A stretch of 11,200 nt of DNA from a virus (taxonomy: Duplodnaviria > Heunggongvirae > Uroviricota > Caudoviricetes), in the IMG/VR virus record IMGVR_UViG_3300037504_000227, positions 1 to 11,200 of that record; one strand, written 5' to 3'. Below are positions 3,884 to 7,523 of this stretch, piece after piece; the first letter of the stretch is position 1; the number at the start of each line of letters is the position of its first letter. A program made the translations under genes and the position numbers. The notes under the pieces were generated by a model, which saw only the letters and a program-made list of their open reading frames with translations, made no database searches and was not told where the DNA came from.

Positions 3884-3912
3884 TTGCATCCAACAGCTAT
3901 ACACGATATAAT
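3884..3912 (+). promoter_or_regulatory. Near-consensus sigma70/sigmaA promoter TTGCAT-N17-TATAAT pointing into the gene-free spacer
   Basis: TTGCAT 3884-3889, 17-nt spacer, TATAAT 3907-3912. Confidence 0.6.
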
Positions 3913-4035
3913 ACTAATTATATAAACTGAGTGGGCACTCAAAACACGCTGGGTGAGCTATCGCGTCATAGACACCTTGCAAGTATGTATTCAGCCCCTC
4001 TCGCAACCTCAAATAACCCTGCTTTATCTATCCCC

Positions 4036-4103
4036 ATCCTACCAGTATCCTACTCAAATCCCCCTGCAATCTCTTTATACATCCTACCGACTCCACTGCA
4101 ATC
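4036..4103. repeat. Imperfect short direct repeats (ATCCTAC x3; CTGCAATC x2, ~33 nt period)
   Basis: ATCCTAC at 4036, 4047 and 4081; CTGCAATC at 4064 and 4096. Confidence 0.4.
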
Positions 4104-4398
4104 CCACAACACCCCTCTCCTGTCGTTCTAAGCGTCGCTACAAGCTACACCTATATCAATTACCTCTAAGCCATTTAATCGCCTTAGAAACAAACGTCAC
4201 GCCCCTGGCAGCATCCTATGGCATATACCGCGCCACGCTATACCATACAAGTATCTGCAAGGCAGCTTGCGCACAAATTTGGACATACACTTAAGAAATA
4301 GCAGCCTATTTGCCCAAAAACCCCCCATTTTCGGGCCTTTCACTTAAGCTTTCGTCCAAACGAGTTTTCAGAACTTAAGGAAACTGCCCATTATAGGG

Positions 4399-4426
4399 TT
4401 GTGCTTCTAGCGTTACCTGGTATAAT
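4399..4426 (+). promoter_or_regulatory. Promoter TTGTGC-N16-TATAAT with extended -10 (TGg); predicted TSS ~4432-4434
   Basis: TTGTGC 4399-4404, TG 4418-4419, TATAAT 4421-4426. Confidence 0.75.
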
Positions 4427-4432
4427 GCGGAC

Positions 4433-5055
4433 AGTTGGAGTTAACAAGCAGACGCAATCGAGCGGGCAACGCGGAGAAATAGCCCCAGCGGAGCCGAAGC
4501 AACGGCGCGGAAGTTAGCGCACAATCACCGAAACTCTAGGCAAAAGCTTAGTTTCAGCACCTAAACAACCGAATACTGGTAAACTCGGAGCCATTAGCAG
4601 AACCCGGCTCGCGGCTTAGCGAGAAAGAAAGCGAAAGCTTCTACTCATTAGCAATACTAGAACCGGACGAACTACCGCAAGGAGTAACGTTAGCCAAGGC
4701 GTAACCGAGCGCAAGCGAAATGTATCCAAGGCAATGCCAGTATAAGGAGATAAAACGAAAATCACGAGAGTGAGCCTTAGCAATAAGGTTGGCCGGAAGA
4801 AAGAACGCATGCGCCAGAAGGAGACCCTGGCGGAAAGTAAGGGCAAACGGGAGCCCTTGCATGCTGGGATTATTCCAATAAGGGTATTAATCGGATCGAG
4901 ACAACTCCAACTAATACCTAGGATACTAGAATTCTCCGGCTATAGTAGGCCGCAGGTATTCGTAATAACGCGGTATGGGAGGAAGACCCAAAGGGAAGTA
5001 TAAGGAGAATTTCTTATGCTCCCTTGGGCTGGCAATCCCCTAACGAAAGGGGATT
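4433..5055 (+). ncRNA. Putative large, highly structured non-coding RNA (ornate, ROOL/GOLLD-like size class; family unassigned) or long structured leader
   Basis: Starts at the predicted TSS. AGTTGGAGTT (4433-42) is the exact reverse complement of AACTCCAACT (4903-12). More than 12 local hairpins, many capped by GNRA loops: AAGC-GAAA-GCTT 4629-40, CC-GCAA-GG 4675-82, TCAC-GAGA-GTGA 4762-73, GCCTTA-GCAA-TAAGGT 4774-89. Three-way junction at 4807-4864. No credible CDS. The 3' end is uncertain (~4912-5055). Confidence 0.7.
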
Positions 5056-5060
5056 ATAAA

Positions 5061-5258
5061 ATGTATATCATCCAATTTGAAAGCAATGCACAGGCCGCAT
5101 ATGCTACAATGAGACTGGATAAATTTAGTGTGGTAGACGACATAGAAATATACCCTAAAGTTATCCAAGTAAACGAGGATGGGTTGTTCACTCTCCAGAA
5201 GTATTACAATCTGGAGCAGCATGACAGCGAGACGTTCCGCGTGGTTTCGGAAAAGTGA
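5061..5258 (+). CDS. Hypothetical protein (65 aa; 80 aa if started at ATG 5016)
   Basis: SD-like AAAGGGGA before ATG 5061; AAGGAG before the alternative ATG 5016. Ends with TGA TAA TAA. Confidence 0.7.
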   Translation: MYIIQFESNAQAAYATMRLDKFSVVDDIEIYPKVIQVNEDGLFTLQKYYNLEQHDSETFRVVSEK

Positions 5259-5281
5259 TAATAATGGATTGCCAGCCCGAG

Positions 5282-5304
5282 AGAGTGTAAGAACACTCTA
5301 TAAT
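5282..5304 (+). promoter_or_regulatory. Possible promoter/operator of the pilin gene: inverted repeat AGAGTGT-AAGA-ACACTCT abutting TATAAT
   Basis: Inverted repeat 5282-5299; TATAAT 5299-5304; SD AAGGAG 5319-24. TTGCCA at 5269-74 is 24 nt away, too far for a canonical -35. Confidence 0.4.
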
Positions 5305-5330
5305 ATACACTAGTTACAAAGGAGACGAAA

Positions 5331-5942: not shown

Positions 5943-6355
5943 TGAGAAAGGCGATTCTGATTATTGCGTTGGCTTTTGTGCTGACAAGCGTGGCTTTGCC
6001 AGTTTCAGCAAACGACGGGCCGACTAATTTCGGCCTTCCGTGGTGGTGGTGGGCAATGTCGCCGGAGAAAGCGGAAGTGATAGAGTTTATCAATTATGAG
6101 GATCTGGGGCCGATTGTAGTTACCACGAACGACGGCCCGGTGGTAATCGCTCATTCTACAATGCATGACGTGCTCGATCCTAACGAAATCGCATTGTATA
6201 GGGAAGCCGGAGCGATAGCAATGGTAACATGCTATCCTGGGACACTGCGAGACGTCCCGAGCGACATTAACGTTATTGGCGACTGGAACGTATCCACAGA
6301 ATTCAATATCACGGGCTGGCCGACGAAAAGCCTGGTAGTTTACCCACAAAGTTAA
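5942..6355 (+). CDS. Putative secreted protein (Sec/SPase I signal peptide, WWWW motif)
   Basis: MRK, hydrophobic core, then VSA|N cleavage site; translationally coupled start. Confidence 0.75.
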   Translation: MRKAILIIALAFVLTSVALPVSANDGPTNFGLPWWWWAMSPEKAEVIEFINYEDLGPIVVTTNDGPVVIAHSTMHDVLDPNEIALYREAGAIAMVTCYPGTLRDVPSDINVIGDWNVSTEFNITGWPTKSLVVYPQS

Positions 6356-6360
6356 GGAAC

Positions 6361-6470
6361 AGGTTGGGCATTGTGCCCACCTTGGATACCACAAGCAAAA
6401 TTGCCGATAGTTCGGATAAAATAATAGAAATCCGGTGATAGCTGGCGACTATCTGAAGCTTGTGGTTTTC
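6361..6470 (+). terminator. Structured intergenic element / possible intrinsic terminator
   Basis: Hairpin AGG-T-TGGGCA-TTG-TGCCCA-CCT 6361-82. The 9-bp stem ACCACAAGC (6388-96)/GCTTGTGGT (6458-66) encloses nested stems and is followed by a short T run. Confidence 0.45.
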
Positions 6471-6521
6471 AATGTGCGCATAATGCGCTAAGAAAATTTC
6501 ACTTTGAAAGGAGAAGCGAAA

Positions 6522-7226
6522 ATGAACTGCCGTATTGTTGAACTGAAAGTTGAAGCGTTGCGGAGTGGGAACGTTGCGCTATACGTTCGCAATGAAGACG
6601 AGGAGCGACGGCCCGTTATGCGAGTGCTTTCGCTCGCAGAGATAGAGTTCCTGAATGTCCCAGAACGTGGGTTCACACCGTATTTCGACGACCTTACCCA
6701 CCTGCTACAGTTCCGCCATAATGCCTTGCGAGTGATTGACTTGTCTGGGAACAGACGTGAAGAACACTGGTACGAGCTGCCTTTGAAGGAATGGCTGAAT
6801 ATCCTGAATGAGGCAGCGGAGCATGCTAGCCGTGAAGAGGAGTGGGAGCGTGTATACACTCCTCAAGAATTGCTAGAACTGGCCGTCAAATATTCCCCCA
6901 GCGTCCGGTGGGAATATGCAGAGGGATTCAGCGACTATCTGGACGTCAGGGACCAGATTGCAAAAGACCTTGACGACGAGCGAAGCACCGGGCTGAAGCG
7001 TTGCCTTGACGGGCTGAAGCGGATCGGGCTGAACTATTCGCATGGTGAACCGTCAACTATCAATCTCAGTTACGATATTCTGCCGCGCGACGGCGGCCCA
7101 GCAAGTTACTACTTCAATATCGTGGATAGTGAGGGACGGTCGATCATGCGCGGCGGGATTGTCGCCCACACTCAATATGAAGACGGCGAACCGACCGAGC
7201 GATGGAAGTACTCAACCCATACTTAA
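6522..7226 (+). CDS. Hypothetical protein with DUF4120-like C-terminal domain
   Basis: Re-started at ATG 6522 after AAGGAG. The C-terminus LKRCLDGLK...INLSYD...SYYF...GGIVAH...STHT resembles the recalled DUF4120 pattern (CLERLK...LYYD..PYSF...GGLLYHG...WSIHT). Confidence 0.7.
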   Translation: MNCRIVELKVEALRSGNVALYVRNEDEERRPVMRVLSLAEIEFLNVPERGFTPYFDDLTHLLQFRHNALRVIDLSGNRREEHWYELPLKEWLNILNEAAEHASREEEWERVYTPQELLELAVKYSPSVRWEYAEGFSDYLDVRDQIAKDLDDERSTGLKRCLDGLKRIGLNYSHGEPSTINLSYDILPRDGGPASYYFNIVDSEGRSIMRGGIVAHTQYEDGEPTERWKYSTHT

Positions 7227-7256
7227 AAACAAGCTGACCTATTAAGGAGGATGAAC

Positions 7257-7523
7257 ATGCCTAAAATCAGTATCACTCAATTGCGCCGCTTTGGACATAG
7301 CGGATGGCAATGGGTAGAGAAGTACACTTACCCATATGACGACGCGCCCACGGAACGAACGTGCCGCACCAACCAAAACGGGGCCGGGCTATTTCACTAT
7401 GATCCGATCCGGAGCTACTGGCACCAACAGCAAGGGACATGCCAGTTTTGGCTGCCGAAAGGCAAGGACGCGGCCTATTCGAAAATCCGCCGGCGGATTG
7501 AAAAGGAGGAATTGACCTATTGA
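7257..7523 (+). CDS. Hypothetical phage protein (RTNxNGxGLF...GTCQF motif)
   Basis: SD AAGGAGG 6 nt before ATG 7257. Confidence 0.8.
   Translation: MPKISITQLRRFGHSGWQWVEKYTYPYDDAPTERTCRTNQNGAGLFHYDPIRSYWHQQQGTCQFWLPKGKDAAYSKIRRRIEKEELTY

Follow-up and report, generated by a model that had tools for sequence, protein, structure and literature searches.

We tentatively propose, with confidence somewhat below even, that the 583 nt preceding the first rightward gene of this phage (positions 4433-5015, plus strand) form a long, structured, U-depleted 5' leader, which would stabilise and gate an early mRNA. The phage record comprises 110,716 bp at 49.7% GC with an 86-bp terminal repeat, and the window, i.e. 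the whole stretch of DNA analysed here, corresponds to its first 11.2 kb. Genes to the left of ~3721 are oriented leftward, while those from 5016 on are oriented rightward. Between both blocks lies ~1.3 kb without a credible gene, the right half of which is the 4433-5015 stretch. The promoter heading the leftward block belongs to the phage's own class (CTTTAAGGT, 14 nt, TTG, TGGTATAAT), which is present in 9-10 copies genome-wide.

A promoter-like element is located directly upstream of the stretch (4399-4426, plus strand). It combines a -35-like TTGTGC (4399-4404), a 16-nt spacer and the extended -10 box TGGTATAAT (4418-4426), with the predicted start at A4433 positioned 7 nt past the -10 box. 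The promoter noted at 4399-4426 by the first-pass annotation is thus present as a sequence. The genome contains 13 TGNTATAAT sites, this one among them, but the phage's CTTTAAGGT upstream element is missing here. Chance alone would produce ~3.4 TGNTATAAT words in the genome, and four are found outside the phage promoter class, so that the assignment rests on position and orientation and not on the word alone. A generic sigma-70 scan did not list this promoter because its -35 element matches at only 3/6 positions. Hence, the promoter is real as a sequence and plausible in function, yet not proven. For the other 12 extended -10 promoters of the phage, the distance from -10 box to start codon is 4-152 nt (median ~14), making a 583-nt leader a clear outlier in this genome.

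Several of the phage promoters are located only 4-14 nt before a start codon (e.g. 3734 minus, 62761, 70970 and 86465 minus), which implies that leaderless or nearly leaderless mRNAs occur in this phage. The phage promoter word TTTAAGnT-N14-TTGTGGTATAAT is found in the window at 3734-3700 (minus) and at nine other genome sites, as well as on 78 metagenome contigs (L060-L137) and 29 GTDB contigs (L138-L166). Seven of the 29 GTDB contigs belong to Anaerolineae (Chloroflexota) MAGs. About half of the metagenome matches share a much longer conserved block, and therefore represent one conserved host locus. In one such contig (L099) the block is followed by ~110 nt ending in a hairpin and T-run, then by further non-coding sequence and a 474-aa ORF; no Rfam match was obtained in the stretch behind the block. 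This type of locus may be a small RNA or leader of the host lineage, whose promoter the phage copies, and the distribution of the word hints at the identity of the host. The 78 metagenome and 29 genome matches were considered as phage relatives and rejected as such, while a search for the word in IMG/VR returned a single match, attributed to chance.

The first rightward gene is ORF80 (5016-5258, plus strand; codon score 0.29), the 80-aa product of which corresponds to one copy of a DUF11-like repeat domain. From residue 3 it aligns to a ~55-aa repeat that is found in 4-9 copies in giant proteins (800-4000 aa); the repeat is DUF11-like in sequence pattern, and Pfam returned no match for ORF80. 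As the repeat alignment begins at residue 3 and an AAGGAG (5003-5008) precedes ATG 5016, this codon was taken as the start in preference to ATG 5061. It follows that the last 40 nt of the 4433-5055 interval are coding, and that 4433-5015 constitutes a 583-nt 5' leader of ORF80. The ~620 nt originally described as lacking a credible gene can hence be retained for 4433-5015 (583 nt), whereas the end at 5055 overlaps the gene starting at 5016. No terminator-like sites were found on the plus strand from 4433 to 5016.

The ribosome site of ORF80 is predicted to be locked. A hairpin at 4991-5025 pairs the Shine-Dalgarno sequence (5003-5008) with the start codon (5016-5018) at a pair probability of 0.97, and a local fold of 4988-5028 has a dG of -19.8 kcal/mol, with pair probabilities of 0.95-1.0 for the AAGG and AUG (1.0 for AUG). 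The Shine-Dalgarno and AUG would thus be occluded on the same transcript, as expected of a cis-acting leader. Furthermore, ORF80 is bracketed by a 28-nt inverted repeat with arms at 5011-5038 and 5266-5293, of which 27/28 positions pair, 3 as G-U. The duplex has an energy of -46.4 kcal/mol, and forcing it to form in full costs only 3 kcal/mol over the MFE. It is probably long enough to act as an RNase III substrate.

The remainder of the leader is dominated by a closed multi-branched domain of 480 nt (4433-4912, plus strand), the closing helix of which is found in both MFE and centroid folds. This helix is formed by 4433-4442 and 4903-4912, an exact 10-nt inverted repeat, as previously noted for the first 10 nt of the predicted transcript; it has a mean pair probability of 0.68 in the centroid fold and a duplex energy of -13.1 kcal/mol. 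When the first 14 nt were kept and the next kilobase was shuffled, a perfect complement of at least 10 nt, to a segment beginning no later than nt 5, arose in 12 of 5000 shuffles (0.24%, P=0.0024). An inner sub-domain (4573-4743) is closed by a 9-bp helix, 4573-4581/4735-4743 (pair probability 0.96, duplex energy -17.1 kcal/mol), with two short extensions. It is followed by an adjacent pair of GNRA-capped hairpins at 4762-4789, the first with a GAGA loop (4766) and the second with GCAA (4780; pair probabilities 0.66 for 4762-4773 and 0.98 for 4774-4789). A two-hairpin junction is located at 4807-4864, where the MFE fold contains a 4-bp closing stem and hairpins 4812-4832 and 4837-4860 (pair probabilities 0.95 and 0.97); the loop of the former displays AAGGAGACC.

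This junction agrees with the three-way junction proposed for 4807-4864 in the first-pass annotation, and the same applies to part of its list of short stems. Those at 4530-4555, 4608-4623, 4626-4642, 4762-4773 and 4774-4789 are recovered in the MFE or centroid fold (probabilities up to 0.98), whereas 4492-4505, 4672-84 and 4689-4705 amount to stems of 2-3 bp with low weight. A suggested second long-range pairing, CCCAG/CTGGG at 4484-88/4864-68, does exist as a complement, but is used by no fold. The count of at least five GNRA loops proved too high: three are located on stems of at least 3 bp (GAAA 4633, GAGA 4766 and GCAA 4780, all three with stems of at least 4 bp), while a fourth (GCAA 4677) caps an interrupted stem. 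Three GNRA hairpins with stems of at least 4 bp correspond to P=0.0075 compared to shuffles, and to the 99th percentile of genome windows; the same count reaches 6-7 in the group I intron region of the phage. Windows of 623 nt over 6201-7401 (plus strand), overlapping a coding region, contain 6 GNRA-capped hairpins with stems of at least 3 bp.

The domain is also distinguished by its composition, with 34.6% A and 15% U across 4433-4912. Among the 480-nt windows of the genome it has the highest AT skew (0.40, compared to a genome mean of 0.013, sd 0.125) and the lowest T content (0.15). Such a strand-specific A-rich and U-poor bias is hard to square with a neutral spacer, and would fit an RNA under selection against U-rich, nuclease-sensitive single strands. 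In 4433-5015, AAGGAG occurs 4 times (0.6 expected) and GGAG 10 times (4.1 expected), k-mer enrichments that fail correction for all k-mers. Two of the three upstream AAGGAG copies fall in a loop or linker of the predicted fold, and a 12-nt word containing the Shine-Dalgarno sequence is present at both 4739-4750 and 4997-5008 (plus strand, direct repeat D5). A seeming enrichment of TTAGC (6 copies) and ATAAGG (4 copies) was discarded, as it is lost after the all-k-mer correction. A distant phage that has the phrog_5162 gene in common with this one possesses an early leader (L037, 7833-8131) that is also U-poor (14% T) and enriched in CTAGC (4 copies, 0.46 expected), a loose parallel to the six TTAGC seen here; neither survives the all-k-mer correction.

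The 4433-5015 stretch was found to be non-coding. All six frames are closed, with 3-15 stops of mixed types in each, and the ORFs inside the stretch have codon scores of 0.04, -0.10 and -0.18 under a model trained on the phage's long genes, compared to 0.17-0.37 for real genes. A protein-coding reading was rejected on these grounds, and a recoded stop can be dismissed because TAA and TAG both occur in every frame. No tandem repeats of the kind seen in type III antitoxins or CRISPR arrays were detected in the stretch.

Folding of the region is better than chance by every span used, with z-scores ranging from -3.0 to -5.9 when compared to dinucleotide shuffles. For 4433-5055 the z-score is -4.76 on the plus and -3.60 on the minus strand (20 shuffles), and the 4433-4912 domain gives -3.0 and -2.7 respectively (100 shuffles). 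A z-score of -4.1 is found for 4913-5060 (100-200 shuffles) and -5.89 for 4433-5330. Much of the signal stems from the 3' part adjoining ORF80. Among 369 plus-strand windows of 300 nt scanned across the genome, where z averages -0.41 (sd 1.18), window 4801 takes 4th place and window 4501 18th, and coding windows such as 5401 and 6601 score as well as these. The 300-nt windows 6301 and 6601, with z-scores of -2.9 and -3.9, match the strength of the 4433-5055 stretch. Given the moderate z-score of the domain and the equal performance of some coding windows, we consider the fold signal real but moderate.

Searches for relatives of the region in phage GenBank, IMG/VR, metagenomes and protein clusters returned none. 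Neither near nor distant modes of blastn detected a homolog of the stretch in 50,697 phage GenBank records. In IMG/VR no close relatives of the neighbouring proteins were found. Among 5.8 billion clusters the 129-aa and 240-aa neighbours matched only themselves, and the 90% clusters of ten neighbouring proteins each contain only this phage. On sequence comparison, the flanking proteins tested are fast-evolving orphans. The relatives of the phrog_5162 neighbour have at most 46% identity, and nhmmer and blastn found no similarity to the stretch in the phrog_5162 loci L035-L039. One other contig containing the region (Logan SRR12689834) is 100% identical. Relatives reached via terminase and capsid (G001-G009) are fragments that stop short of the region or are too distant, with no match to the stretch, and cultured phages have capsid identities of at most 37%. 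A single-sequence covariance model of 4760-4912 gave no match in 369 kb of loci, the rest of the phage genome and 151 genomes of the candidate host class Anaerolineae, which is a weak negative. A loop/junction DNA pattern search in IMG/VR returned one match, set aside as chance.

Upstream of the promoter, the plus strand of 3915-4432 contains a ~400-nt segment poor in G and rich in C, A and T (GC skew -0.47), downstream of a TTGCAT-17-TATAAT element (3884-3912). It is unstructured (fold z -0.8), contains a 36-nt direct repeat (4008-4043 / 4053-4088) and looks like a Rho-loading (rut-like) tract. A similar G-poor leader follows an early promoter in a distant phage locus (L035, 8460-8842). Three CTTAAG-containing words are located just 5' of the 4399-4426 promoter (4281-4295, 4334-4348 and 4370-4380), two of which form a 15-nt direct repeat; these words look like operators for a regulator.

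The observations above bear on whether the stretch acts as RNA at all. It is conceivable, although doubtful, that 4433-5015 is a spacer without RNA-level function, or a DNA-level element such as an origin, operators or lost-gene remnants, with its structure largely due to chance and composition. This would be in keeping with a position in the main divergent intergenic region, with repeats and CTTAAG words upstream, among neighbouring genes that are all fast-evolving orphans. Moreover, both strands fold below their shuffles, and coding windows reach similar z-scores. Against it stand a closing helix exactly at the predicted start (P=0.0024) and a strand-specific A-rich, U-poor composition that is the genome extreme. 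G-U pairs in several helices favour the plus strand, and the Shine-Dalgarno and AUG are predicted to be tightly paired. One DNA-level variant, an R-loop origin, was set aside because the RNA is A-rich and not G-rich (GC skew ~0.05).

If the stretch does act as RNA, it falls outside the known families. Rfam 15 cmscan of the window gave no match at gathering score, and with permissive filters over 4300-5150 (E<=10) nothing was found within 4433-4912; weak, chance-level matches occur in 4923-5063 (SpF41 E=0.23, Bacillus-plasmid, ylbH), with one further match on the minus strand upstream. The covariance models of ROOL (RF03087) and GOLLD (RF01998) did not match even at E<=10 over 4300-5150, and Rfam models for OLE, HEARO, raiA, RNase P, tmRNA, 6S and group I and II introns gave no match. 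ARAGORN detected no tRNA or tmRNA in the 11.2-kb window. The original statement that the stretch resembles neither tmRNA, RNase P nor a self-splicing intron is thus borne out, whereas the inference of a divergent member of a ROOL/GOLLD-type class finds no Rfam match behind it. ROOL and GOLLD are large ornate RNAs of phages and prophages (PMC12286853, PMC5737381), and RNA-only homo-oligomeric assembly is known for ROOL, GOLLD and OLE (PMC12286853). The 4433-5015 RNA resembles them in size range (~500-800 nt), phage location, multi-branched predicted fold and the presence of some GNRA loops, but differs in having neither a covariance-model match nor a family of homologs. The typical context of ROOL and GOLLD is a prophage or phage next to tRNA genes, while no tRNA is found in the window here.

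A stand-alone large structured RNA of a new class remains an unlikely reading. Cleavage of the early transcript, at sites such as the 27-bp duplex or a point beyond the closing helix, would release a trans-acting RNA of ~480-590 nt. This RNA might bind 30S subunits or a CsrA-like protein as a decoy, or form an RNA-only assembly like ROOL/GOLLD. End-to-end pairing closes the domain, as in many stable RNAs, and the GNRA-capped hairpins, the junction, the accessible GGA/AAGGAG words in loop and linker, and an RNase III-like duplex just downstream are all consistent with such an RNA. Nonetheless, it has no Rfam match and no homolog, so that the 'class' would have one member; there is no terminator or mapped processing site, the GNRA loops number only 3-4, and the fold z-score is moderate. 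That this 480-590-nt RNA founds a new class of large structured phage RNAs, as the first transcript of infection, released by RNase III-type cleavage and acting in trans, is graded improbable; its trans action would be, for instance, Shine-Dalgarno/GGA display to 30S subunits or a CsrA-like regulator, or ROOL/GOLLD-like self-assembly. If true, a new large phage ncRNA would be added to the very short list of ROOL and GOLLD. A cis-acting 5' leader is more economical than a free-standing RNA, since the stretch runs into ORF80 without a terminator and its 3' part contains the ribosome site of that gene.

Finally, a minus-strand product, either an antisense RNA from a promoter-like site at 5081-5053, ending near 4500-4482, or a 73-aa protein from an ORF at 4862-4641, is very improbable: a TTCAAA-17-TATAAT site (10/12), two terminator-like sites on that strand, the calling of the ORF by an automatic gene finder on the Logan contig and the minus-strand z-score of -3.6 speak for it, but promoter-like sites are no commoner than shuffling would give (2 found, 2.6 expected), the codon score of the ORF (-0.10) is that of non-coding sequence, and the plus strand folds better, its G-U pairs being A-C mismatches on the minus strand.

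Returning to the 5' leader, its sequence features, fold statistics and continuity with ORF80 are observed, and from these we infer transcription, stabilisation, gating and processing. Host RNA polymerase would transcribe the leader from the extended -10 promoter, and burial of the 5' end in the 10-bp helix would protect the RNA from 5'-end-dependent decay. Single-stranded AAGGAG words may add to this stabilisation by holding 30S subunits, in the manner of purine-rich 5' stabilisers. The buried 5' end and the purine-rich Shine-Dalgarno-like words hence suggest a stabilised message. The last ~100 nt could act as an expression platform, in which the ORF80 Shine-Dalgarno and AUG are paired with each other, and the near-isoenergetic 27-bp duplex around ORF80 would provide an RNase III-type processing site. 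With the ribosome site paired and a near-isoenergetic duplex available, translation of ORF80 would depend on refolding or processing of the RNA: the locked ribosome site points to gating of this first gene, and the bracketing duplex to processing. The latter could also free the leader as a discrete RNA. Several points weigh against the leader reading. No homologs were found, and hence there is no covariation; the 480-nt domain has a moderate z-score, which some coding windows equal; and the minus strand is likewise more stable than its shuffles (z -2.7 to -3.6). In addition, the promoter word is partly expected by chance (~3.4 genome-wide, four outside the class), and the k-mer enrichments are lost after all-k-mer correction.

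Individual elements of this model have counterparts in known systems. The T7 leader from A1 to gene 0.3 (site R0.3) and the lambda pL-N leader are long structured early leaders with RNase III sites. As in these, the first early transcript here has several hundred non-coding nt before the first gene, and a long duplex is predicted near the ribosome site, where RNase III cutting could alter translation. In contrast, the sequences are not similar, neither nut nor boxA/boxB elements were recognised here, and the T7 and lambda leaders are not known to have a counterpart to the 480-nt closed, U-depleted domain. The succession of an upstream structured domain and a hairpin predicted to occlude the Shine-Dalgarno and AUG is reminiscent of riboswitch and T-box leaders. 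However, the domain is 2-4x larger than any known aptamer or T-box, lacks an Rfam match, and is at most sensor-like, any ligand or alternative anti-sequestrator pairing being hypothetical.

Closest to the proposed stabilising role are the Shine-Dalgarno-like 5' stabilisers. PMC7509114, citing Hue et al. 1995 (PMC177050), documents them in, among others, phage SP82 early RNA, the cryIIIA STAB-SD and the ompA and ermC leaders. Shared features are a purine-rich 5' region, perfect AAGGAG words without a properly spaced start codon, and a 5' end shielded by structure, which is predicted here. The known stabilisers differ in spanning tens of nt, compared to ~500 here, and ribosome binding is putative in the present case.

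As a single-sequence prediction, the 4433-5015 RNA is a well-defined candidate. If real, it would place an RNA device of unusual size in front of a phage's early genes, combining a closed, U-depleted 480-nt domain with a locked ribosome site and a duplex that brackets ORF80. It would then illustrate the way in which the first messages are stabilised and timed in an uncultivated phage lineage with a possible Chloroflexota host.
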